A stretch of 64,000 nt of DNA from an uncultured Alphaproteobacteria bacterium (GTDB taxonomy: Bacteria; Pseudomonadota; Alphaproteobacteria; RF32; CAG-239), in the NCBI GenBank assembly GCA_944393695.1, contig CALYAY010000002.1, positions 46,244 through 110,243 of the forward strand, in the 5' to 3' direction. Shown one piece after another: positions 15,508 through 63,057 of this stretch; the first letter of the stretch is position 1, and each line of letters opens with the position of its first letter. Under the pieces are notes generated by a model. That model made no database searches, was not told the DNA's origin, and saw only the letters and a program-made list of their open reading frames with translations. The position numbers and the translations under genes are program-made.

Positions 15508-15819
15508 TTAAAGCTTAATTTCAACATTAACACCGGCAGCCAGATCCAGCTTCATCAAAGCATCGACTGTCTGCGGGGTCGGATCCACAATATCCAGAAG
15601 TCTTTTATGAGTACGGATTTCGAACTGTTCACGGGATTTCTTGTCAACGTGAGGAGAACGGTTAACCGTAAATTTCTCAATTCTGGTCGGAAGAGGAATA
15701 GGACCTCTTACATTAGCACCTGTTCTTTTGGCCGTATGCACGATTTCTTTGGTAGAAGCATCAAGCAGACGATGATCAAAAGCCTTCAGGCGAATTCTTA
15801 TATTTTGAGCTTCAATCAT
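15508..15819 (-). CDS. rpsJ: 30S ribosomal protein S10
   Basis: 103 aa, [20 protein letters not shown], the S10 signature. Confidence 0.95.
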
Positions 15820-16196
15820 TAAATAACGATTCCTTTTATAACTAGAACCCTGCGATTCTAACTGATTAAAAACATGGCAAACTCTTGTATTACAAGTTTT
15901 TGCATTATAAACAAGTTTATCTGCGGACAGACGGATTCCTCCCTTTCCGCTAACAACCGTGCGCCCCTTGTATCATAGACAAACAAACTTTGCAAGCAAA
16001 AAATGCACAAAAAAGCAAAATAAATTTCGTTGAATCGCCGACTCAGAGTCACATTGAGTCAAATCGCTGTTTTTAAAATGTTTTTAAAATCGAGTCGTCC
16101 GAAGCGTCATTTTAGACAAATACCACTAAAAGAGTCAAAAAAAACAGATACAAAAAAAAGCACCTCACTTTTGCAAGTGAAATGCTTTTGATAATC

Positions 16197-16556
16197 TCAT
16201 TGCTGAAAACAATAACGCTCAAAAATATCATAAACATCAGCAACCGTTTTAATACGCAAACCATCTTCGGCAGAAACAATTTTGCCATACTTTTCTTCAA
16301 AAGACATAACAAACTCTGTTATGTACAAATCATATTGCCCAAATTCGCCCAGACCTAAATCATTTTGAAAAGAAAGATTTTGAGAAACAACCCAATATTT
16401 CTCTCCCAAAACATTATCCCATTTTCCATAAAACTTTTTTAAATTCTTATCTGAAACTCGGAATAATAAAAAGTCATAAATAAATTTATTGGCCTCTCTG
16501 ATAAGTTTAGGACTATAAGTTTTTTCCGCCTGTAACTTTTTTTTTGAATTTTCCAT
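16197..16556 (-). CDS. hypothetical protein (119 aa), unrecognised
   Basis: Complete ORF followed by a hairpin plus T-run terminator (16160-16195). Only 35 bp downstream of the 225-aa ORF. No family recognised by eye. Confidence 0.5.
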   Translation of the reverse strand: MENSKKKLQAEKTYSPKLIREANKFIYDFLLFRVSDKNLKKFYGKWDNVLGEKYWVVSQNLSFQNDLGLGEFGQYDLYITEFVMSFEEKYGKIVSAEDGLRIKTVADVYDIFERYCFQQ

Positions 16557-16590
16557 AATGATATTTTTATGAACTAATAATAAAATAATT

Positions 16591-17268
16591 TTACATCAAA
16601 TTGTTTTGCACCAGATAGTTATGTGCCATAACCTTAATCAGCTCCTTAGGCATAGGCGCGTTCTTTTCATTTCCGACATAATTTCGCACCTGTTCTTTGG
16701 TATCATCCGGCAAAGGCAAAAGTTCCGCCTTTGTTACCAAGGGAACATCTTGTTCGGCATCATTGCTAAAACACCAAACGCCGTTTTTCTTCATCAGCAC
16801 CAAAAGGGCCAAAAAATAGCCGCAGTCTTCATAAGCGAACGAAAGCGTAAAAACAAATACATCCGGCCTTATGCGAACAACTTTCTTGCCACCCTCCTGA
16901 GTTTCAATCCAAGAAGTTTCCTCATTGAGCGAACTTTTCAAAATAAGGCTTTTTTCAATATCAACCTTATCCCAATCAATACGCTTTTTCACTTCGGAAT
17001 GATGTTCCACATCCCGAGCAAAAATCGCCCAACCAAGCGCACGCATATAATCTTTAACCTCACGCCCGAAATAAACGGACTTAGGAGCTTTTGATAAAAG
17101 CTGTTGTCCTATTTCAAGCTCTTCTTTAGATAATGCATACACCGCCTCATGAACCTCCAAACGGTCAAACTGATGTTTTTTAAGCCAAGCATAAGCCTTA
17201 TCCGATGCATCATATCTCCGCCGAAGCGAACATTTTTTTACAAACAATTTTTTGATAAATCCAGTCAT
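16591..17268 (-). CDS. hypothetical protein (225 aa), unrecognised
   Basis: Complete ORF with no SD. Located in the rpsJ|tuf insertion. Confidence 0.5.
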   Translation of the reverse strand: MTGFIKKLFVKKCSLRRRYDASDKAYAWLKKHQFDRLEVHEAVYALSKEELEIGQQLLSKAPKSVYFGREVKDYMRALGWAIFARDVEHHSEVKKRIDWDKVDIEKSLILKSSLNEETSWIETQEGGKKVVRIRPDVFVFTLSFAYEDCGYFLALLVLMKKNGVWCFSNDAEQDVPLVTKAELLPLPDDTKEQVRNYVGNEKNAPMPKELIKVMAHNYLVQNNLM

Positions 17269-17504
17269 AATTATAAGTTTAAGTTAATAATAAATTTTAT
17301 CGCTCCCACCTTATACGACGCCTTCACTTTTGTCAATAGACAAAACCACACCTTTCAACCCCTCACAGAAAAACGCAAAGAGAAAATCCCCTTGCGCCGC
17401 AATAAAATTATCAATAGCAATTTCTTGATAATTCAAATGATTAAGCTTTGCAATTTCTTGTACAATTTGTAGGCTCAAAGATAACACCTATTTTGTTTTC
17501 ATCA

Positions 17505-18176
17505 TCACCTCCTTAATACCTTCTTTGCCCAAAACATCGGCCGCCAATGACGGCGAACATAAAACACAACCAGCAGCCCATATAAAAGCCCAAGCCCCCA
17601 TAATCCCCAAAAACGCAAATCCCGGCCGTCCCATTCCCGGGTAATTTCATTCACGTTCAGAGCACTGCCCTTAATTTCAATTCCTGTCGTCGGCTTCTCG
17701 TGCAACACCGCAACCGCAATCTGATACTCAGGATTCAACAGATCAAAATTTATCAGCAGCTCGCCTTCCTGCTCGGTTAAAGAGGCGGTAATTGCCTCGG
17801 TTGTTTCCGTATTATCCAGAACAAAATGCACCATACCCGCCTCTTCCGGCACCACAATCCGGATCGGATCATGCCCCGGCTTCGAAACATCCCGTCCGGA
17901 CAAAGCCTGTTGTCCGTAATTGCGCAGATAAACCTTTGTCTGATATAAATCCTTATATTCCTTTCCCTTAACCGTCACTTTATATTGGTTCTCATTGGCC
18001 GAAGAAATAAAAGACACACTCTGCGTATCATATTTCAAAATCGGATTATTGATATATGCCAGATACCAGGCCAGCACGATTGCCGACACCCCGATGATAA
18101 AAGCCCCGGTCTGACTGGTCCAAAAATTCCAAAAAGCTCTTGCCGCATAACGGACTTTCGTTGCAAAATGCGTCAT
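17505..18176 (-). CDS. hypothetical bitopic membrane protein (223 aa; N- and C-terminal TM helices flank a ~150-aa domain)
   Basis: Good SD (ACGGAGGA - 4 nt - ATG). Hydrophobic segments AFIIGVSAIVLAWYLAYI and FWGLWGLGLLYGLLVVFYV. Confidence 0.55.
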   Translation of the reverse strand: MTHFATKVRYAARAFWNFWTSQTGAFIIGVSAIVLAWYLAYINNPILKYDTQSVSFISSANENQYKVTVKGKEYKDLYQTKVYLRNYGQQALSGRDVSKPGHDPIRIVVPEEAGMVHFVLDNTETTEAITASLTEQEGELLINFDLLNPEYQIAVAVLHEKPTTGIEIKGSALNVNEITREWDGRDLRFWGLWGLGLLYGLLVVFYVRRHWRPMFWAKKVLRR

Positions 18177-18217
18177 TTTTTCCTCCGTTTTTTAGAGCTA
18201 TATAATCATTTTTAAAT

Positions 18218-18247
18218 CAAAAAAAAGAGTCTTCTTCAGACTCTTTT
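18218..18247 (-). terminator. Rho-independent terminator after the 210-aa gene
   Basis: Minus strand AAAAGAGTCTGAAGAAGACTCTTTTTTTT. Confidence 0.5.
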
Positions 18248-18261
18248 CATTTAACATCTCG

Positions 18262-18894
18262 TTAAAACAGTGAAATAATTTGCTGACCGTCGAACCCCAG
18301 ACTTGCCGCGGTTTTCCAACACTTGGGAAGTTGCGCACGCCAGTCATCTTCTTCAAAGGGAATTTCAATCAGACTGTCACTCTGCACACCATACTGCCGG
18401 TAAATTCCGCCATCCGAAACAAACAAGTTGCCATAAGCATTAACAAAAATTTCCGCACAAGAATTCAATTGCGGAAAACAACATGTCAGCTCATGCCCGT
18501 CAACACTGCTGAACGCCTTTACCTGAAGCAGATCAAAGACATCATCCTGAAAAAACATCTGCCTGACAACAACACAGGCGGCAAAAACCACGGCCGAATC
18601 AAGCAACCAGATACCGGCATCTTCCGCAAACTCGCATCCAACCAGCAAGCGGCGCCTCCCGTCAGAAGTCTTTTTCACGACCAGATACGTACTTTTCCCT
18701 TCCTTGCCCTTTGAAAAACTAAAAACATCAATATCTGCGCTTTTAGCCACCGGGTTGCATTCAGAAAGAATAACTTTTTCGGCAAAAGCTTCCGCCACAC
18801 AATTTACCGCCACGAACAAACGGCAGTCATCCGACATCAACACCAGGCTCTCAGGTTCGGCACAGTTTTTCCAAGTTTTTATAACTTTTTTCAT
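18262..18894 (-). CDS. hypothetical Cys-rich cytoplasmic protein (210 aa), unrecognised
   Basis: Complete ORF, 11 Cys, no signal peptide. First gene of the rpsJ|tuf insertion on the minus strand. Confidence 0.5.
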   Translation of the reverse strand: MKKVIKTWKNCAEPESLVLMSDDCRLFVAVNCVAEAFAEKVILSECNPVAKSADIDVFSFSKGKEGKSTYLVVKKTSDGRRRLLVGCEFAEDAGIWLLDSAVVFAACVVVRQMFFQDDVFDLLQVKAFSSVDGHELTCCFPQLNSCAEIFVNAYGNLFVSDGGIYRQYGVQSDSLIEIPFEEDDWRAQLPKCWKTAASLGFDGQQIISLF

Positions 18895-19051
18895 AATACA
18901 AATTTTTTAATAAACATAAAAATAAAAATTTACGTCCATACTACACATCTTTCACCAAAAGTCAATCGCTTTACCCCCATAAAAAAGCACAAAAGATTAA
19001 ACTTGCAAATCACTTTTTTATATGCTATTATAGACACAATTAAGTATAATT

Positions 19052-19435
19052 ATGTCAAAAAAAAAGAAAACTATGGCAACAAAAAGATTTTTATGGGTCG
19101 TTCTTGCCGGCATTATCGGAATTCTCCTCGGTGTAAGATGTTCCGGCCCGGCCAACGAACAAGCAAGAAACTTAGTCGTTAATGACAGTCTGTCCGTTGA
19201 AATATGCGACAAGAACGTCATTAACAAAAGCGTCTCCGACCTCTATGACAAAAAACAGGAGATTATCGGCGACACACTGTTCTCCTCCGCCCAGGTGACA
19301 ATCATGCTGGACTACAAGGATTCCACCGTGGTTGAAACCTATCGGGTCGGCAGCCGGACAAACATCAAGACCGGTCAATCCCGGCAAGATAAAGTCCAAA
19401 AGCTGGAACACACCGTCCAGTCGGCACAAAATTAA
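19052..19435 (+). CDS. hypothetical exported protein (127 aa; alternative start at 19073)
   Basis: N-terminal hydrophobic signal/anchor (FLWVVLAGIIGILLGV). Divergent from the 210-aa gene. Followed by a strong terminator. Confidence 0.45.
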   Translation: MSKKKKTMATKRFLWVVLAGIIGILLGVRCSGPANEQARNLVVNDSLSVEICDKNVINKSVSDLYDKKQEIIGDTLFSSAQVTIMLDYKDSTVVETYRVGSRTNIKTGQSRQDKVQKLEHTVQSAQN

Positions 19436-19440
19436 AAAAA

Positions 19441-19471
19441 TCCCCCGGAAACACCTTTCCCGGGGATTTTT
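19441..19471 (+). terminator. Rho-independent terminator
   Basis: TCCCCCGGAAACACCTTTCCCGGGGA followed by TTTTT. Confidence 0.6.
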
Positions 19472-19482
19472 CTTTCACCCAC

Positions 19483-19516
19483 AAAAAAAACTCCGTTCCC
19501 AAAGAACGGAGTTTTT
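19483..19516 (-). terminator. Rho-independent terminator downstream of tuf (bidirectional hairpin)
   Basis: AAAAAAAACTCCGTTCCCAAAGAACGGAGTTTTT. Confidence 0.6.
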
Positions 19517-19545
19517 AATTAATGGAGTTTCAAAATTATTTCAGA

Positions 19546-20736
<1,191 letters not shown>

Positions 20737-23415: not shown

Positions 23416-23790
23416 TTATTTAGGTCTCTTTGCGCCGTACAGAGAACGACGTTGACGACGTTTGGAAACACCTTGAGTATCCAAGGTACCACGAATGATA
23501 TGATAGCGAACACCTGGCAAGTCTTTGACACGGCCTCCTCTAATCAGCACCACTGAGTGTTCTTGCAAGTTGTGACCTTCACCAGGGATATAGCTGATTA
23601 CTTCAAAGCCGTTCGTCAAACGAATACGAGCCACTTTACGCAAAGCGGAGTTCGGTTTTTTCGGAGTAGTTGTATAAACTCTCGTACAAACACCGCGTTT
23701 CTGTGGACACGATTTCAAAGCCGGAACTTTGTTTCTCTTAACTTTGGGTGTTCGTGATTTACGAATTAACTGATTAATTGTAGGCATCAC
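23416..23790 (-). CDS. rpsL: 30S ribosomal protein S12
   Basis: PTINQLIRK...[11 protein letters not shown]. Confidence 0.95.
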
Positions 23791-24242
23791 TAATTTCCTT
23801 ATTTATTATTATTAACACAAAAACCCGATTCACCATGCCTCCCGGCTTTTGGTAAAACAGGAAAACCTTTCCGGATTTCGGAAAAAAAGCCTGATTCGTC
23901 TCCTCTTCAGAAACGCCATACGCTTTCTTTCCTTCACATCCTTATGATTTATTCCCTTCTCTTGCAGCGTGTCGCCTTTGAAAGAATTAAGCGCATATTA
24001 ATGACACTTCCCCCCGAAGTCAACATCTTTTTTACAAAATTTTTGATTTTGAGTCCAAAAAGCTTTTACTTTTGCTTAACCTTTGTTCCCTTGCGATTCG
24101 CAAAGTCTTTCTCTGACTCGCCGCATAGCTTTTTCCGCTTTTTGCCCTCAAGGCCTTTTTGAGTCAAATTGAGTCCATAATATATAAGAAGTTTAACCAA
24201 GTTTTAAGCAATTACGGTAATGATACAAAGCGGAGGAACCCA

Positions 24243-24641
24243 ATGTTTAAACAATTCGGCTTAACATTTCTCGCCCTTTTGTCCGGAGCCTGCACCAGCT
24301 CTTACCGCCTGGCAGAGCTTGGCGTCATATCTCCCGACATAACCGGCATTGACCCCGTACAGCTGCAAAAAGCCCGGATAATTCCCAATGTGACCGGAAC
24401 CGACACAACTCCCGTCGTTTTCATCTTCCCTCAGGGATATCCTAATCTTGAATATGCCGCCCGCCGGGCTTTACAATCCTCCGAAGCCGACATCCTGGTA
24501 AACGTCCGGGCCGAATACAAAAGCTCATGGTACCTTTTCGGCGGTCAAAATTCCATCACCGTAACCGCCGACGCCGTCCGGCTGGCGCCGTTGTTCTCCG
24601 CTCCTGAAGAAAATACCGAGGCCGCCCATGACCATGAATAA
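24243..24641 (+). CDS. small lipoprotein (putative)
   Basis: SD GGAGGAA precedes the start. MFKQFGLTFLALLSGAC has a lipobox Cys. The ORF track shows an unsupported N-terminal extension from 24159. Confidence 0.5.
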   Translation: MFKQFGLTFLALLSGACTSSYRLAELGVISPDITGIDPVQLQKARIIPNVTGTDTTPVVFIFPQGYPNLEYAARRALQSSEADILVNVRAEYKSSWYLFGGQNSITVTADAVRLAPLFSAPEENTEAAHDHE

Positions 24642-24978
24642 AATCTTTCTGGCTTCACTTTTTTTGCTCAGCGCCTGCACCACCCGGGAAGGCCTCTACG
24701 GTGTTTTAAGTTCCCGGCCGATGAGCCTCTACACGCTGACCGAACCGGCCCAAACCGTTGCCTCGCAGGTTCACGCCGAAGTATCTTACACGCAGTTTCT
24801 GCTGATTCCGCTTGACGACGCTCCGAAAATTGACAACGCAATAGAAGAACTGGTGCAAAAATATCAGGGCGACTACATGAGCAACATTGAAATCAAATAC
24901 CACACCGTCCGCCTGCTTCCCTTTTATGGCAAAAGCACCTGGTCCGTCACGGGAGATATCATGCGTGTTTCTCAATAA
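24628..24978 (+). CDS. small lipoprotein (putative), paralog-like of the preceding gene
   Basis: MTMNKIFLASLFLLSAC lipobox. Overlaps the upstream gene by 14 nt. Similar predicted beta-rich C-terminus. Confidence 0.5.
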   Translation: MTMNKIFLASLFLLSACTTREGLYGVLSSRPMSLYTLTEPAQTVASQVHAEVSYTQFLLIPLDDAPKIDNAIEELVQKYQGDYMSNIEIKYHTVRLLPFYGKSTWSVTGDIMRVSQ

Positions 24979-25063
24979 ATCATAAAAAAACTTGCTTTTA
25001 AAAACCAAACATCATATCTTTAGCTTATTGCTGAATAATATTATTGAAGGAACATGATATATT

Positions 25064-26026
25064 ATGGAAAACAAAGACCTTATCTCTGCCAAACACACCA
25101 TTGACAAAGAAGTCGAAGCCTTGCGCATAATGGAAGATTCTCTCAACCAAAATCTGACCCGGGCGCTTGATCTCATGCAAAAGACCGAAGGACGCGTCAT
25201 TGTCACCGGCATGGGCAAATCCGGCCATGTCGGCAGCAAAATCGCTGCCACCCTGGCCTCCACCGGCACCCCGTCGTTTTTCGTTCATCCCGGCGAAGCC
25301 AGCCACGGCGACCTCGGTATGATCACCACCAAAGACTGCGTCCTGGCCATTTCCAATTCCGGCGAAACCCGGGAACTCTCCGACATTATCATTTACTGCA
25401 AACGCTACAGCATCCCCTTAATTGCCATGACCAAAAATCCCGACAGCGCCCTGGGCAAAGCCGGCGATATTTTGTTGCAGCTTCCCGATGACGGTGAAGC
25501 CTGTCCGCTGGGACTGGCCCCCACCTCATCCACCACTGCCACCATGGTTTTCGGCGATATTCTGGCCATTGCCCTGCTTGAGCGCCGCGGCTTTTCCAAA
25601 ACCGATTTCAAACAGCGTCATCCCGGCGGCAAACTGGGGGCTTTTTTGCAAAAAGTTTCCGACATCATGCACAAAGGCGACGAAATCCCCCTGATTTCCG
25701 AAAACGCCCCCATGCCTGATGCCATTCTGGTCATGACCGCCAAAATGCTGGGCTGTGTCGGTGCCCTTGACGACCAGGGAAATCTCATCGGCATCATCAC
25801 CGACGGTGACCTCCGCCGTTATATGGACGGCAGCATCATGACCAAAAAAGTCAAAGATGTCATGACCGTTCATCCCAAGTCCATCCCTGCCGACACCATG
25901 GTGGCCGAAGCGCTCAACATCATGAACAACACCGGCAAAGGCATCACCCAGCTGTTTGTCATCGACGGACAAAAACCCGTCGGCATTGTCCATATGCACG
26001 ACTGCTTAAAAGCCGGAGTTGCCTGA
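25064..26026 (+). CDS. kdsD: arabinose-5-phosphate isomerase (SIS + tandem CBS), KdsD/KpsF family
   Basis: 320 aa with an SIS domain (VTGMGKSGHVGSKIAATLASTG) and C-terminal CBS pair. Canonical neighbour of lptC/lptA/lptB/rpoN. Confidence 0.85.
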   Translation: MENKDLISAKHTIDKEVEALRIMEDSLNQNLTRALDLMQKTEGRVIVTGMGKSGHVGSKIAATLASTGTPSFFVHPGEASHGDLGMITTKDCVLAISNSGETRELSDIIIYCKRYSIPLIAMTKNPDSALGKAGDILLQLPDDGEACPLGLAPTSSTTATMVFGDILAIALLERRGFSKTDFKQRHPGGKLGAFLQKVSDIMHKGDEIPLISENAPMPDAILVMTAKMLGCVGALDDQGNLIGIITDGDLRRYMDGSIMTKKVKDVMTVHPKSIPADTMVAEALNIMNNTGKGITQLFVIDGQKPVGIVHMHDCLKAGVA

Positions 26027-31056: not shown

Positions 31057-31746
31057 ATGGCGGAAGAAAGCAACAAATATATTGACGAGATGATTCCCTA
31101 TGTGGAATTTGCCGATAATGCCAATGAGCGGACACCGTGCGTGCTGGTGCTGGATTGTTCAGGTTCAATGCGCGGTGAACCGATTAAGCAGCTTAACACC
31201 GGGTTGAAAGCCCTGGAAAAGGAACTGAAAGAAGACATAGACGCCAGTTCGCGGGTGCAGCTGCTGATTATCAAAGCTTTTGGCAAAGATGAAGCCGTTG
31301 TATCTTCGGACTGGATTGATGCCATGAATTTCGAGGCACCGGAGATGGAAGCCGGAGGACTGACGCCTCTGGGTAAAGCCATGGAACTGGCTTTGCAAAA
31401 AATAGAAGAGCAAAAGTGTTTGTATGACAGCTGCGGTATTACCTCCAAACGACCGTGGATTTTTCTTATCAGCGACGGAGAACCGACAGATTATGACTGG
31501 GAGATTATTGCAGAAAAGTGCCGTTATGCCCAGAAGAATAAAAAAGTCGTTATTCATGCGGTGGGAACTCAGGGAGCAAACCTGGAAAAACTGGCCAAGT
31601 TTTCAACCATAGCTCCGAAGCGTTTGAGCGGACTAAAATTTACCGAATTCTTTTTGTGGTTGTCGCGCAGTGTTTCCTGTGTTTCAAAGGCGGCACCGAA
31701 CGTTCCGGATTTGTTGGAAGATACGGATGACTGGAATGCGAAGTAA
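31057..31746 (+). CDS. von Willebrand factor A domain protein, TerY-like
   Basis: 229 aa. MIDAS motif VLVLDCSGSM, later SDGEPTD. AAGGA SD. Stop overlaps the start of the PP2C gene. Confidence 0.8.
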   Translation: MAEESNKYIDEMIPYVEFADNANERTPCVLVLDCSGSMRGEPIKQLNTGLKALEKELKEDIDASSRVQLLIIKAFGKDEAVVSSDWIDAMNFEAPEMEAGGLTPLGKAMELALQKIEEQKCLYDSCGITSKRPWIFLISDGEPTDYDWEIIAEKCRYAQKNKKVVIHAVGTQGANLEKLAKFSTIAPKRLSGLKFTEFFLWLSRSVSCVSKAAPNVPDLLEDTDDWNAK

Positions 31747-32476
31747 AGTCAGGGTAGTGGCGGCCAGTGTATGCGGCCCGATGCACCGCTACCGGAAAAT
31801 GCCTTGTCAGGATTGTTTTAAGCACAAAACCGGCCGGCGCAATTTTGTGGCCGTGGTGTCTGACGGAGCCGGATCGGCCCGGTATGGCAAAATCGGAGCA
31901 CGGGTAGTCTGCGAAACATTAACCGATTTGCTGGCGGAATGTGATTTTTCAACGGTCAAAACCCGGATTGTGCAGGCAATTGAAACCGCCCGCGGCCGGC
32001 TTATCAGACATCGGTTTAACAAACAAAAAAATACAGAAGGACTGCTTGATTTTTCGGCAACCCTGGTGGGAGCCGTATGCAACCGCGGACGAGGAATGTT
32101 CTTTCATATCGGCGACGGAGCCGGTATTGCCCTGAGCAACGGAGATTATGAACATTTCGTGGCAACCAGGCCGGAAAACGGAAATTTTGCCTGCGAAACT
32201 TTCTTTTATACCATGGATGACTGGAAAGAGAGCCTGCGTTTTACAACATTTGAAAATGCCAGCACATTATTTTTGATGACCGACGGGGTGACAAATTTTG
32301 CCTTTTCGCCGGACTACCGGCATATTGAGAAAGGTTTTATTGCTCCGATTAATGATTTTTTGCAAAAGGATATGTCAAAAGGCAAAGCCGTATGGGCGCT
32401 GAACAATACGCTGAACACACCGCAGGCAAAAAAACTGAATTCTGATGACAAGACTTTGTTATGGGCACAGTTATGA
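31727..32476 (+). CDS. PP2C-family Ser/Thr protein phosphatase
   Basis: Motifs VVSDGAGSARYG, HIGDGAG, LMTDGV. Start MTGMRSK overlaps the vWA gene's last codons. Confidence 0.75.
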   Translation: MTGMRSKVRVVAASVCGPMHRYRKMPCQDCFKHKTGRRNFVAVVSDGAGSARYGKIGARVVCETLTDLLAECDFSTVKTRIVQAIETARGRLIRHRFNKQKNTEGLLDFSATLVGAVCNRGRGMFFHIGDGAGIALSNGDYEHFVATRPENGNFACETFFYTMDDWKESLRFTTFENASTLFLMTDGVTNFAFSPDYRHIEKGFIAPINDFLQKDMSKGKAVWALNNTLNTPQAKKLNSDDKTLLWAQL

Positions 32477-33942
32477 TTGAACAGCCGGATTTGGAAAATA
32501 TAACTTATTCCGCCATTTATGCCGACGGGCGGTTTGAGCGGATTACTTTGGGCAGCATGGTTAACAAAGGCGGTGCCGCAGGGCGGATTTATCTGGTAAA
32601 GGATTATCCGTTGCTGGTGGCAAAAATTTTTCACAGCCGCAACCGGAGTTCTTCCAATCGCAAAAAGCTGGAAGCCATGCTGTTAAACCGTCCAGATTTT
32701 CCGCCGGCAGTCAAAGACGGCGTGGAATATGTGCAAATTGCCTGGCCGGTAGCGGTTTTGGAGGATGAAGACGGTTTCTGCGTCGGTTATCTGATGCCGC
32801 TGATAAAAATGGACGAGGCAGTGTCTCTGGATCATCTGATGCAAAAAGCCATCCGCAAAAAGCTTGGGCTTTCGGAAAAATATTCATATCGGATTTTTGC
32901 GGCATATAATGTGTCATCGATGGTAGCGGCATTGCATGAGGCCGGACATTATATCGTGGATTTAAAACCGTCCAACGTATCGGTATATCGTGATACAATG
33001 ATGGTCGCGATGGTAGATTGCGACGGTTTTTCGATTAAGGGCGAAAGAGGAACCCGTTATCCGGCCGATTTTGTCAGCGAAGAATATATTTATCCGGAGG
33101 GAATGGAACAGTCCTGTGACGAGATGGGCGAAGAGCAGGATAAATTTGCATTGGCGGTGATGATTTTTAAGCTGTTGAACAGCGGCATACATCCGTTTTC
33201 GGGTGTACCGCGCAAAACCGACAGCGAAATGCTGACCATTCAAAACAGAATTGCCCAATATCATTATGCCTACGGATTGTGGCCGGATACTTATCAGGCC
33301 CCGCATCCGTATTCTATTCACGAATATTTTGACAAGAAAACCCTGGAATTGTTTGAGCGGGCGTTTGTGCGCGGCGGAGTCCGGCCTTCGGCGCAGGAAT
33401 GGAAGGAACATTTGCATTATCTGCTGCATCATTTGCGGAATTGTCCGAAGAATCCCGACCATGTTTATTTTACCTCAAAGGGCTGCGGTTTGTGCATGGC
33501 AGAAGAAAGATTTCGCGGTGTCCTGCAGGATGTGAAAAAACAAAAGGAAACACCTTTGAAACTGCGGGGAATGGAGGTTTCGGAAATATCGGTAGAAAAA
33601 ATGAACCGCGAAAAAGCCGAAAAAATCAGCGAAGATGCCAAAATCAGACGCTGGACTTTGACCGGGGTGGGCGTTTATCTGCTGTTTTTCGGCCTGTTAT
33701 TCAAAATTCTGGCTCCGGCAACGGAATTTTTACAGAAAATCGGACTCGGAATCCAAGCGGTTATCGTTACTTTTATAATGCTGGGAATTAATACCTTTAT
33801 CCGTAAATACCGTGAGAAACTGCCTTTGCTGCAGAATCGGGCATTGGCACAGATGTTGCAGGTCTATGCGCTTATCTGCATCATTATCGTGCTGGTAACG
33901 CTGAACGACATTCCCAAAGGGCTGTTATTGCCGGCTTTGTAA
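32461..33942 (+). CDS. Hanks-type Ser/Thr protein kinase with three C-terminal TM helices
   Basis: 493 aa. Catalytic loop VDLKPSN, DCDGF (DFG-like), APE-like region. C-terminal hydrophobic helices. Start overlaps the PP2C stop. Confidence 0.8.
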   Translation: MGTVMIEQPDLENITYSAIYADGRFERITLGSMVNKGGAAGRIYLVKDYPLLVAKIFHSRNRSSSNRKKLEAMLLNRPDFPPAVKDGVEYVQIAWPVAVLEDEDGFCVGYLMPLIKMDEAVSLDHLMQKAIRKKLGLSEKYSYRIFAAYNVSSMVAALHEAGHYIVDLKPSNVSVYRDTMMVAMVDCDGFSIKGERGTRYPADFVSEEYIYPEGMEQSCDEMGEEQDKFALAVMIFKLLNSGIHPFSGVPRKTDSEMLTIQNRIAQYHYAYGLWPDTYQAPHPYSIHEYFDKKTLELFERAFVRGGVRPSAQEWKEHLHYLLHHLRNCPKNPDHVYFTSKGCGLCMAEERFRGVLQDVKKQKETPLKLRGMEVSEISVEKMNREKAEKISEDAKIRRWTLTGVGVYLLFFGLLFKILAPATEFLQKIGLGIQAVIVTFIMLGINTFIRKYREKLPLLQNRALAQMLQVYALICIIIVLVTLNDIPKGLLLPAL

Positions 33943-43259: not shown

Positions 43260-43817
43260 TTATTCTCCCTCCAGATACATCACCGGCCGGACATGACATA
43301 ATTCTCCGCCGCCGTAAATGTCCGAGGAAGCGTTGTCAAAACCAATAATCCATGGTGCAATACCCGGTCCTCTTTTTCCGCTTGCAGTATCGGCCCAATA
43401 ACCTTTATGGTCTGTTTTTATAGCCACCAAGGGTTTCCCGCCGACACTTTCCAGCTTTTGATTCAGAGCCTCAAAATAAGGTGCAACCTTTTGCTCCAAA
43501 CCGGCACGTGGCAAGGTAGTTGCTCTTCCTGCAATTTCAACCTTACGGCAATAATCACAGGCCCGGTCAAAATTCATCAGAGTATCAGCATCCTTCAGTG
43601 CAAAAACCACCAGGCCGCAGCGCACTCCTTCAATTTTTCCGTTCTCTCCGCGATAAGGCTCAATCAATTTTCCGAGGTCAACATTTTTTTCTTCGTTTTT
43701 GGGTTCTTTGAACTGTACTTTTGTCACAGTTTTCTTTCCGAACTTTTCAAACAATCTGTCGGCAAACACTCCGGCAACAAAAGAGACAAAGCTGGTAAAC
43801 AAAATTTTTTTATCCAT
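43260..43817 (-). CDS. Secreted/anchored single-domain DUF1566/Lcl-C-like protein
   Basis: 185 aa. N-terminal hydrophobic anchor. C-terminus TLPRAGLEQ...YWADT...APWIIGFDN...CHVRPV is homologous to the VRPV(I/L)EF-ending domains at 3822 and 49130. Lies on the opposite strand between ftsA and ftsZ. Confidence 0.55.
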   Translation of the reverse strand: MDKKILFTSFVSFVAGVFADRLFEKFGKKTVTKVQFKEPKNEEKNVDLGKLIEPYRGENGKIEGVRCGLVVFALKDADTLMNFDRACDYCRKVEIAGRATTLPRAGLEQKVAPYFEALNQKLESVGGKPLVAIKTDHKGYWADTASGKRGPGIAPWIIGFDNASSDIYGGGELCHVRPVMYLEGE

Positions 43818-49129: not shown

Positions 49130-49945
49130 ATGAAGAAGATATTATTGGCGAGTGTCGGAATTATAATAAGCACAGGAACAACATATGCCGCGTGTATCCC
49201 GACGCCGAGTTGTTCAAGTTTGGGATATGAAAGCTCCTCATCCTGCGAGGGCGGGCTCAAATGTCCGTTCGGCAATGCCTGGAACTGCACTTTGGTAAAC
49301 AAAATTACTGAAATCACTACCGAGATAACCGAAATCAAAAAAGTGATTGAAGAAGGCGGTGTCGGAGGTGGTAATAAAAACTGCCAGATTGGAAACATCT
49401 ATTATTCTGACAAAACCTGTTCTGTATCTTTGGACAGTTCCAAAACCCCGATTGGCGTGGTGGTTTATGTCGATGGCCAGGGACATGGGCAAGTGATGGC
49501 GTTGAAGTCAATAGGTAAGAATCAATGGGGATCAACGAATGTTGATATTCCGACCTTGACTAACTTTAGCAGTGATGAAAGTGCGAGTTACGATTTGAGC
49601 AGCTGTGCTAATACCCAGAAGATTATGACAGCCGGTGATAAGAGTACTTATCCGGCGGCTTGGGCGGCACACGAGTATAAAACCGAGGGAACGGAAGCCG
49701 GTGACTGGTGCCTGCCAGCAGCCGGTGTATTTACTTCATACTACAATAATCAACAGTTGGTTAATATCGGTATGACGAACGCCGGAGGCACTCAGATAGG
49801 TGAGTATACCTATATCTGGTCGTCTTCCGAATGCGGTAGCGGCAACGTGTGGACCTCGGATTTCCGCCACGACTACGGGGTGAGCGACGGCTATGGCAGT
49901 AAGCTTAGCAGAGGCAACGAGGTTCGACCGGTGCTGGAATTTTAA
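49130..49945 (+). CDS. Secreted DUF1566/Lcl-C-like protein (family copy B)
   Basis: 271 aa. Signal peptide, short Cys-rich N-terminus, C-terminus DWCLPAAGVF...IWSSSE...EVRPVLEF. 5' region and upstream 53 bp nearly identical to the gene at 63449. Confidence 0.7.
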   Translation: MKKILLASVGIIISTGTTYAACIPTPSCSSLGYESSSSCEGGLKCPFGNAWNCTLVNKITEITTEITEIKKVIEEGGVGGGNKNCQIGNIYYSDKTCSVSLDSSKTPIGVVVYVDGQGHGQVMALKSIGKNQWGSTNVDIPTLTNFSSDESASYDLSSCANTQKIMTAGDKSTYPAAWAAHEYKTEGTEAGDWCLPAAGVFTSYYNNQQLVNIGMTNAGGTQIGEYTYIWSSSECGSGNVWTSDFRHDYGVSDGYGSKLSRGNEVRPVLEF

Positions 49946-61995: not shown

Positions 61996-63057
61996 ATGAT
62001 GAACAGTAACAAAGCATTATTGCTTATTTCAGCATCAGGGCTGCTGCTTATGCCCTGCGGCATATCTTTGGCAGCTTATTTGCCTCAGTCATCTCTTCCG
62101 GATGCGATTACATCTGTCTATAACACACACTTCACACACACCTCTCACCCGGGGGAAGTGTTGTTGTCTTCTGCCTTTTATCCTCTCCCTGAAAACTCAG
62201 GGAGCTCTCTATTCTACCCCCTCCCTAAAAACTTAGGGAGGGGTTGGGGAGGGTTTCACAACACCACCCTTATCCAACTCGCTGCGACTTGTTTTGTGAC
62301 CGATACCTCGGCCTGTTCGGGCAACGAGTTTTCCGGCAATAATGCCGATGATGACGGACATGGTGCTCCCGGCGGTCCCGGAGACGGTGACGATTATGAG
62401 CTTGATAATAAAGAGCGTTGCAATAAAGAGGGCTATTATCTGACTTCATGCCCGGACGGACAAGAGGGTTCAGGTTTCTGCCCCTATGACAACGGTTATT
62501 TCGAAAAATGTGTTTCGTCCTGTCCTTCAAATTATGTGACCTGTGAACCGCCTTACTATGGCGTGGGTGAGGCTTGTAACGGTAAATATGCCTCTTGTGA
62601 AAAAGACACTGAGCGCGCCTGTCAGGAATTAAACCCCGGTTATGTCGATGAATGCGGCACCGGACAACAATTAAGCGATGACAGATGTTCTTATGATAGC
62701 TCTTACGGCACCTGTTGTAATACTTGTGAGGGTTACGATAACACCACTATTTCCGAGGGCTATGTGCAAGACGGCGAGGCCTGCACCGGCTGCGACGGTC
62801 AGGAACATTATAAGATAAAACCCAACCCGTGTGACGGATTTATGGACTGCGGCTCCATGGGCGGCGAAGCCGGAGCGAAGACCTGCCTGTCGGGGACAAC
62901 CACCATGTACGACAATTGTAAGGCCTGTCCCAACTTGGGAGAATACACTACCTGTCCGAGCTGTACCATATGCCAGTATGAAGAATGCTCCGGTCTGTGG
63001 TATGCCACCGGCTGTGCCACGAATTGTACGGATTATTGTGACTTCTGCGGCGGGTGA
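61996..63057 (+). CDS. Secreted Cys-rich protein homologous to the N-terminal two-thirds of the 3822-5813 protein; lacks the DUF1566-like domain
   Basis: 353 aa. Signal peptide. Shared blocks THTSH, LPENSG, LIQLAATCFVTD, CSGNEF, DDYELD, FCPYDN.YFE.C, CEPPYYGVGEAC.GKYASCE. Same upstream motif ATAAGATTCGTGAAGACAA. A palindromic repeat is translated in-frame as PLPKNLGRGWGGFH. Confidence 0.65.
   Translation: MMNSNKALLLISASGLLLMPCGISLAAYLPQSSLPDAITSVYNTHFTHTSHPGEVLLSSAFYPLPENSGSSLFYPLPKNLGRGWGGFHNTTLIQLAATCFVTDTSACSGNEFSGNNADDDGHGAPGGPGDGDDYELDNKERCNKEGYYLTSCPDGQEGSGFCPYDNGYFEKCVSSCPSNYVTCEPPYYGVGEACNGKYASCEKDTERACQELNPGYVDECGTGQQLSDDRCSYDSSYGTCCNTCEGYDNTTISEGYVQDGEACTGCDGQEHYKIKPNPCDGFMDCGSMGGEAGAKTCLSGTTTMYDNCKACPNLGEYTTCPSCTICQYEECSGLWYATGCATNCTDYCDFCGG

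Follow-up and report, generated by a model that had tools for sequence, protein, structure and literature searches.

Genes between tuf and rpsJ in an uncultured alphaproteobacterium: a probable mosaic in a flexible slot

Most bacteria have their str and S10 ribosomal operons side by side. In a 64,000-nucleotide stretch of the genome of an uncultured alphaproteobacterium (contig CALYAY010000002.1, positions 46,244 to 110,243; hereafter the window), tuf (19546-20736, minus strand; fusA, rpsG and rpsL upstream of it) was separated from rpsJ (15508-15819, minus strand), which was followed by the S10 operon (rplC, rplD, rplW, rplB and further genes). The original prediction, made from the sequence alone, had placed 3.7 kb with five open reading frames (ORFs) in this gap, and we confirmed the coordinates (3,726 bp). 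It had also taken the ORFs for one compact cassette, an uncharacterised accessory system compatible with defence or toxin/immunity. The question was whether one system resided at this junction or whether its genes had separate histories. We found that the slot was filled and remodelled piecemeal, and therefore the five ORFs, all of them real genes, were probably a mosaic of independent transcription units in a flexible slot and not one system.

Gene content of the slot in the window and in its relatives

From rpsJ to tuf, the order of the ORFs was p119, p225, p223 and p210, all on the minus strand, and then p127 on the plus strand, divergent from p210. The first, p119 (16197-16556, 119 aa), was a degenerate paralogue of the acyl carrier protein (ACP), separated by 34 bp from p225 (16591-17268, 225 aa), a conserved orphan restricted to this clade. 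They were followed by p223 (17505-18176, 223 aa), a membrane protein, by the polymorphic p210 (18262-18894, 210 aa) and by the small protein p127 (19073-19435). None of the five slot proteins had a paralogue elsewhere within the window. Four of them matched no described family (Pfam, NCBIfam, PADLOC and PHROG were searched), as had been anticipated; p119 was the exception, being recognisable as an ACP relative.

The whole arrangement recurred in seven other metagenome contigs. Six of them (L001-L006) had the same gene order and an identical p225 protein, and the seventh (L012) had the window's gene order with a p225 of ~90% identity. The ratio of nonsynonymous to synonymous substitution rates (dN/dS, Nei-Gojobori method, window versus strain variants) was 0.20-0.36 for p225, 0.09-0.35 for p223, 0.13-0.17 for p210 and 0.12-0.23 for p127, and these four genes were under purifying selection. 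It could be argued that some or all of the ORFs were non-coding frames that arose by chance, or genes already dead, in an intergenic stretch undergoing decay, since a clear nadE pseudogene was present, p119 had lost a key residue and four of the five ORFs were without a clear Shine-Dalgarno sequence (only p223 had one, GGAGG). This explanation is extremely improbable, because the dN/dS values were well below 1, no ORF was disrupted in any of the seven further window-lineage contigs that carried the region (L001-L006 and L012), and p223 had a confident structure model (pLDDT 94.5) and a broad family. Taken by itself, p119 may still be a dead gene. The five ORFs were genuine genes.

A scan of species-representative genomes revealed p225 at 82-83% identity in two metagenome-assembled genomes labelled 'uncultured Alphaproteobacteria bacterium' (L007 and L008). 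A protein search yielded 14 clusters that were 52-100% identical to p225, all of them without a Pfam domain, and five clusters were traced to contigs (L001-L006 and L009-L014). In L007, tuf was followed by genes for proteins of 238 and 283 aa, a p210 homologue (29% identity), an NMN/NaMN adenylyltransferase-like (NMNAT-like) protein, the nicotinamidase PncA, NadE and p225. The slot of L008 had no adjoining tuf and comprised a DUF2207 protein, a p210 homologue (25%), NMNAT-like, PncA, NadE, p225 and an ACP-like gene before rpsJ. The order in L013 and L014 was NMNAT-like, PncA, NadE, a 72-aa protein, p225, ACP (PF00550) and rpsJ. Finally, L009 and L010 (p225 identity of 52%) had tuf, a 178-aa protein, (an 86-aa protein), p225, a p210 homologue (24%) and rpsJ.

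The gene sets of the slot did not co-vary among these relatives. Both p223 and p127 were seen only in the window's own lineage (L001-L006 and L012 for p223; the same contigs together with L026 and L027 for p127), and not in L007-L010, L013 and L014. The ACP-like gene was present in some relatives and its place in L009 was taken by the p210 homologue, while p210 itself shifted in position and allele. On the other hand, p225 was present in every relative found, one or two genes upstream of rpsJ wherever the contig extended to rpsJ. Since the content differed by relative, the slot was old and variable, with p225 as its sole constant member, and it had been remodelled by deletion, replacement and allele exchange.

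The same-strand genes are predicted to fall into three or more units, divided by terminator-like hairpins. Terminators had been proposed after p210, after p119 and, in bidirectional form, by p127, and we located hairpins at all three sites. The hairpin expected to end the p210 transcript (18222-18248, minus strand) was 98% conserved even beside a divergent p210 allele. Another (16156-16189, minus strand), with a 15-bp stem and a T-run, lay upstream of the rpsJ promoter/leader region and would end the unit formed by p225 and p119. The bidirectional one (19436-19471) had 16-nt arms (94% complementary) flanked by an A-run and a T-run, and was common to tuf on the minus strand and p127 on the plus strand. 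An additional hairpin (17372-17398, minus strand; 12-bp stem and T-run) was located between p223 and p225, inside a nadE remnant. In total, the region contained 14 terminator-like sites versus 4.5 +/- 1.9 in shuffled sequences.

We found none of the hallmarks of an integrative mobile element or genomic island (integrase or transposase, tRNA target, flanking direct repeats). There was no tRNA within 35 kb of the slot, no significant repeats flanked it, and the ORF list and a Pfam scan revealed no integrase-like ORF among the slot ORFs. A search of PADLOC-DB v2, which the original prediction had recommended, produced no match at E<=1 for any of the five proteins, and Pfam and NCBIfam scans of the five proteins detected no toxin, antitoxin or immunity domain. 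Nor did p225 and p119 behave as a toxin-antitoxin or immunity pair, as the pair was broken in L009.

One uncharacterised accessory system, for instance for defence or toxin/immunity, could be proposed for the four same-strand genes with or without p127 because of the common strand, the compact layout, the membrane component, the short p225-p119 gap and the low GC content of the p119/p225 part (30% in p119 and 41% in p225, with 46-47% in p223, p210 and p127 and a window average of 46.7%). The ACP orthologues of p119 in relatives were also AT-rich (34% GC), so the low values did not mark a recent foreign origin. Such a system is very unlikely: it was contradicted by the synteny, by the internal terminators and the pseudogene fragment between p223 and p225, and by the lack of defence or toxin domains and of mobile-element hallmarks in the searches described above; moreover, p119 was an ACP derivative and not antitoxin-like. 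What survived of the earlier proposal was the accessory, lineage-variable nature of the genes, but their separate histories and terminators did not fit a single system. Comparison of the junction in relatives had been suggested as a check, with housekeeping homologues at this position counting against the proposal. The content was indeed lineage-variable, but relatives held ordinary NAD-salvage genes in the slot, which was close to the unfavourable outcome.

Traces of lost genes: nadE and the acyl carrier protein

The 236-bp gap between p223 and p225 contained a nadE (NAD+ synthetase) pseudogene fragment of 207 bp (17341-17547, minus strand), which had been missed when the locus was described as one cassette. 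It corresponded to residues 58-126 of the relatives' 277-aa NadE and was truncated at both ends (tblastn: 68% amino acid identity, E=4e-23; blastn: 80-81% nucleotide identity to nadE of L007, L008 and L013). An in-frame TAG was present where the relatives had Tyr. A NadE is expected to be a complete ORF with the SGGxDS ATP pyrophosphatase motif; the remnant had neither the SGGLDS region (residues ~46-52 in L007) nor the C-terminal half.

Two boundaries of the remnant suggested how it was formed. On one side, window positions 17345-16468 aligned at 86% to the L007/L008 region that began 77 bp upstream of p225. Because the remnant directly abutted this homology, ~850 bp comprising the 3' half of nadE and the spacer had been deleted, and the junction showed a few bases of overlap. 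On the other side, the similarity to nadE ended at 17547, inside the p223 ORF, and the last ~13 codons of p223 (WRPMFWAKKVLRR) were nadE-derived DNA read in another frame. Since the p223 C-terminus came out of nadE DNA, p223 either landed in a broken nadE or was joined to one, and in doing so it replaced the NMNAT-like gene, pncA and the 5' end of nadE. This event, which was marked by no integrase, tRNA or flanking repeat, predated the divergence of the window lineage from that of L012.

We propose that the NAD-salvage cluster of the relatives (NMNAT-like, PncA and NadE) was destroyed in the window lineage in this way: the deletion would have taken the 3' part of nadE, and the sequence 5' of nadE codon ~58 would have been swapped for p223, whose frame now ends in nadE-derived DNA.

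Degeneration was also seen in p119. Its homology to ACP was clear via its orthologues: the L008 orthologue matched ACPs from PDB at E=1e-10 and had an intact DLGADSL motif, and the L014 orthologue had PF00550 on record. In p119 itself, residues 56-112 matched NCBIfam ACP models with E=1.5e-6, scoring 27.9 bits against a cut-off of 71; PDB ACPs were matched at E=5e-5, and Pfam produced no match at E<=1. Codon for codon, the window had GAA TTT GGG CAA TAT GAT TTG (EFGQYDL) where the relatives had GAT TTA GGA GCG GAT TCT TTG (DLGADSL), so that GAT (Asp) was opposite TCT, the phosphopantetheine Ser codon of L008 and L014. Thus p119 lacked two defining ACP features, a score above the curated profile cut-off and the conserved Ser of the DSL motif, and therefore it was an ACP derivative rather than an ACP. 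Being without the prosthetic-group Ser, it was not a canonical acyl carrier. The middle third of the gene (~16322-16468) had diverged beyond nucleotide recognition, and its ends were ~80-86% identical to the relatives. Further toward the S10 operon, nucleotide identity was 79% to L008 (16322-15400) and 79% to L009 (16144-15508).

The neighbouring p225 had invariant His89, Cys149, Cys166 and His216 and a strongly conserved core (AYEDCxYFLALL / WCFSN) in the alignment of its family, and its structure model was of low confidence. Plasmid and phage record collections and IMG/VR held no relatives of p225. Relatedness of p225 to p210 was ruled out (hhalign probability 7%). The p225 alleles looked mosaic in an alignment of P0003, P0004, P0005, P0008 and P0010 (alignment A1): the N-terminal half of P0003 was of the L007 type and its C-terminal half of the window type, and P0004, P0008 and P0010 had a common alternative N-terminus of 25 residues (ARIDAVRSKDEAPDVVED). 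This pattern suggests frequent recombination in the slot.

The adjacency of p225 and ACP in most relatives suggested, without proving it, a former functional pairing. One might go further and regard them as a working enzyme-carrier pair for acyl or aminoacyl transfer, with a lipid or small-molecule product, in which p119 served p225 without a prosthetic group. The genes were neighbours, separated by little sequence, in the window, L008, L012, L013 and L014, the four invariant Cys and His residues of p225 could form a catalytic set, and p119 retained the ACP recognition helix (TEFVMSFEE). Nevertheless, we consider a working pair rather doubtful, as p225 of L009 and L010 had no ACP gene in the available 3-12 kb, the Ser-to-Asp change abolished the attachment site, and p225, whose model offered little confidence, was unlike known ACP-dependent enzymes (Pfam, NCBIfam and further comparisons).

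In the piecemeal scenario that we prefer, the ancestral core of the slot would be p225 followed by an ACP paralogue standing on its own, with a terminator shortly before the S10 promoter. The ACP partner of this ancestral pair would now be dispensable, and the paralogue, with its Asp and diverged middle third, may be decaying or kept for a non-carrier role. A more far-reaching and unlikely reading would make p225 a factor specific to this clade with a functional link to the S10 operon, upstream of which it is constantly located.

Accessory genes p210, p127 and p223

The original prediction had described p210 as a Cys-rich cytoplasmic protein. It indeed contained 10 Cys, but none of them was conserved in homologues, so this richness carried no functional signal. 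A cytoplasmic location was probable, as no signal peptide was seen, and the conserved motifs were FVNxxGNL and QxG. We found no match for p210 in family databases (Pfam, PADLOC, NCBIfam and PHROG), PDB, plasmid and phage record collections or IMG/VR. The protein diverged fast: its homologues were 67% (P0016), 29%, 25% and 24% identical, with p225 at 82-83% and rplC at 92% in L008, and alleles of 100, 95 and 67% identity were located between near-identical flanks.

The L026 contig demonstrated how sharply one such allele was bounded. Its tuf end was 100% identical to the window and its p127 92% identical, and the upstream region of p210 together with the first ~29 codons was 96-100% identical. 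Codons 30-210 had a nucleotide identity of 55-82% (dS=1.14, dN=0.27, dN/dS=0.23), and 98% identity resumed just past the p210 stop; the divergent block spanned 18262-18808 in the window and 841-1390 in L026. These sharp boundaries indicate that p210 alleles were replaced within one population, through homologous recombination in the conserved sequence on either side. The classes of allele were old and each was under purifying selection. Such deep polymorphism is typical of conflict- or niche-related genes, which does not by itself identify the function.

The exported 127-aa protein of the original prediction had the N-terminal hydrophobic stretch expected of a signal-like or anchor helix. Its longest ORF started at 19052; however, strain variants began with MKTKRFLWV, so p127 probably started at Met8 (19073) and was 120 aa long. 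By eye, its LLGVRC was not a canonical lipobox. The only family match was weak and led to a PHROG without annotation (E=4.8e-4), and there were no PDB sequence matches and no relatives in plasmid and phage record collections. It may be a small exported or anchored protein of the window lineage, and both p210 and p127 could be niche- or conflict-related accessory proteins.

The bitopic topology predicted for p223 was confirmed by hydrophobic 19-mers starting at residues 22-26 and 187-189. In its AlphaFold (AF2) model (pLDDT 94.5), a beta-sandwich of ~125 aa was located between N-terminal and C-terminal transmembrane (TM) helices; we infer an orientation in which the sandwich probably lies in the periplasm. 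HMMER (phmmer) revealed a family of 71 cluster representatives at E<=1e-3, of which 27 were at E<=1e-10. Its members had a common architecture (a TM helix at the N-terminus, a domain of ~125 residues and one or several TM helices at the C-terminus), the motifs N-x-G, DP(I/L)RI, F(D/N)(Y/F)LNP and H(E/T), and G-S after the last strand. p223 shared this architecture and these motifs, and the conserved columns were N86, G88, F144, H159 and G170. The family was rare, no covering entry existed for it in Pfam, NCBIfam, PHROG or PADLOC, and one of 44 members had a marginal PADLOC match (PycTM, E=0.005). Plasmid and phage record collections contained no relatives of p223, P0036 and P0063, a scan of metagenome contigs with the single p223 protein found no relative, and one viral protein was structurally similar to p223.

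We examined the genomic context of this family at eight loci, mostly on short contigs. Five of the eight were in type I restriction-modification (R-M) operons, in a defence island or at prophage edges. L020 and L021 each carried a p223-like gene within a type I R-M operon, and in both of them a gene for a 99-aa protein, homologous between the two, came immediately before it. The L022 member was on a 414-kb gut contig near a type II restriction endonuclease (REase), two Dcm methylases, a PDC-S57 candidate and a HATPase_c_3 protein, whereas the L024 member abutted prophage head genes. An IMG/VR contig (L025) had a member, confirmed by hhalign (98.3%), beside putAbiC and AntA/GIY-YIG prophage genes. 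The remaining contexts were different: L015-L017 (42% identity to p223) had the gene between a DUF2207 protein and rpsD, L019 next to a mutY-like gene (annotated by eye), and L018 next to a gene of no assigned function. The association of distant members with defence and mobile contexts was real but thin, and it failed for the closest members.

In L020 (3427-4688) and L021 (1923-3062), the 99-aa gene and the p223-like gene shared or overlapped the boundary base. The membrane proteins were 31% identical, the 99-aa proteins were mutually homologous (METNFKLS...KLLICEIKDK) without a Pfam or PADLOC match, and the two R-M operons were unrelated. The pair has the appearance of a conserved insert of two genes within R-M loci. 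The window had no 99-aa partner and no R-M genes nearby, and its p223 was flanked by p210 and the nadE remnant. Separately, a DUF2207-type protein was directly upstream of the p223 homologue in L015 (2-2682) and of the p210 homologue in L008 (4523-7564), an assignment confirmed by Pfam in L008 and made only by visible similarity to the L008 protein in L015. It seems that one small set of accessory genes is being rearranged among the neighbourhoods of ribosomal-protein genes (rpsD and rpsJ) in this group. Relatedness of p223 itself to DUF2207, as a short member, was ruled out (hhalign probability 0.3%).

These contexts raised the possibility that p223 served a module for phage exclusion or abortive infection as its membrane-anchored sensor or effector, and that its family comprised undescribed beta-sandwich proteins with this role, perhaps working with or guarded by p210. 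The two independent R-M operons with the 99-aa partner, the island of L022, the prophage edge of L024, the putAbiC neighbour in L025, the single viral protein of similar structure and the deep polymorphism of p210 all agreed with it. However, the family databases named above did not cover p223, its closer relatives (L015 at 42% and L019) adjoined housekeeping genes (rpsD and mutY-like), and the 99-aa partner was absent from the window. In addition, p210 occurred without p223 in L007, L008 and L009, a terminator separated the two genes, the fold was a generic beta-sandwich, and the guilt-by-association argument drew on eight loci. We regard such a module, and such a role of the family, as unlikely. 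The defence hint of the original prediction was reduced to a weak single-gene lead from the p223 family, without PADLOC, toxin or immunity matches.

Several points weigh against a mosaic of independent units. Most relatives were represented by short flanks, the contexts of the p223 family came from eight loci on mostly short contigs, and the terminators were consensus matches rather than measured transcript ends. A hidden functional link between p225, p210 and p127 may exist. A two-gene p210-p223 module is also possible, because the window lineage has the two genes side by side on one strand and distant relatives of p223 were defence-associated. On balance, we still favour the mosaic, in which p223 would be a recently placed accessory envelope protein that was possibly involved in phage exclusion.

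Other parts of the window and of related contigs offered further observations. At 31057-33942, there were three consecutive, partly overlapping genes for a VWA-domain protein (Pfam E=1e-6), a 268-aa ORF and a 493-aa protein with a protein-kinase domain (Pfam E=1e-9) and C-terminal hydrophobic helices, which could be a signalling or conflict module. Exported or Cys-rich proteins without a Pfam match were encoded in the window at 49130-49945, 43260-43817 and 61996-63057, in L007 at 500-1216 and in L008 at 209-910. The 238-aa protein after tuf in L007 had a C-terminal domain in common with window positions 49610-49846 (tblastn E=4e-6). A by-eye guess of DUF1566 in this protein and in the proteins at 49130-49945 and 43260-43817 was not confirmed by Pfam (E<=1e-3). 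In the ~2.6 kb read upstream of rpsL (23791-26026; region 23416-26026), there was no rpoB or rpoC; two small lipoprotein-like ORFs were followed by kdsD-lptC-lptA-lptB-rpoN-hpf-ptsN (assigned by eye), and this may be one more place where the genome departs from the synteny usual for the ribosomal cluster.

Comparison with known systems

As a new multi-gene system, which it had been claimed to be, the locus failed, and flexible islets, orphan genes, decaying genes and polymorphic loci are each of a familiar kind. It was a new instance in that a flexible, recombining slot was located at one of the most conserved junctions of bacteria, that of the str and S10 operons. The gene loss in progress (the nadE stub and the lost ACP serine) informs metabolic streamlining in an uncultured alphaproteobacterial lineage, and p210 is a clear case of deep polymorphism among alleles that recombination maintains. 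The p223 family, which combines a confident fold with recurrence in R-M, defence and prophage contexts, is a cheap candidate for defence-gene screens and the only element with some potential for a new entry in defence-gene catalogues.

Compared to ACP (PF00550; AcpP-type), p119 aligned to helices II-IV (FVMSFEEKYG...IKTVADVYD), but differed by Asp instead of Ser, the diverged middle third, the N-terminal extension of ~55 aa and a position outside any fab or secondary-metabolite cluster. With respect to the NAD salvage/amidation cluster, relatives carried all three genes intact in the slot (Pfam CTP_transf_like, Isochorismatase and NAD_synthase), while the window retained only the 207-bp nadE stub with a stop and had lost the NMNAT-like gene and pncA.

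The beta-sandwich of p223 was similar to cohesin, carbohydrate-binding (CBM) and Ig-like modules in its generic fold only, with a sequence identity of 4-13%. Unlike the secreted cellulosomal modules, p223 was tethered by a membrane helix at each end. Accessory genes inserted in type I R-M operons and defence islands (PrrC-type and Abi-type) provided another parallel: distant p223 relatives were located between hsdR/hsdM and hsdS, in an island with REase and PDC-S57, and beside putAbiC at a prophage edge. Yet p223 had no sequence or fold relation to described defence proteins, and the association was read from gene context.

The closest counterpart of the whole slot was a flexible genomic islet. 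The likeness consisted of conserved flanks (tuf and rpsJ) around content that varied between close relatives, of one sharply bounded allele replacement (p210) and of the lack of an integrase, tRNA or flanking repeat. The difference was that this slot lay between the str and S10 operons and included an ancestral core gene, p225, that never left it.

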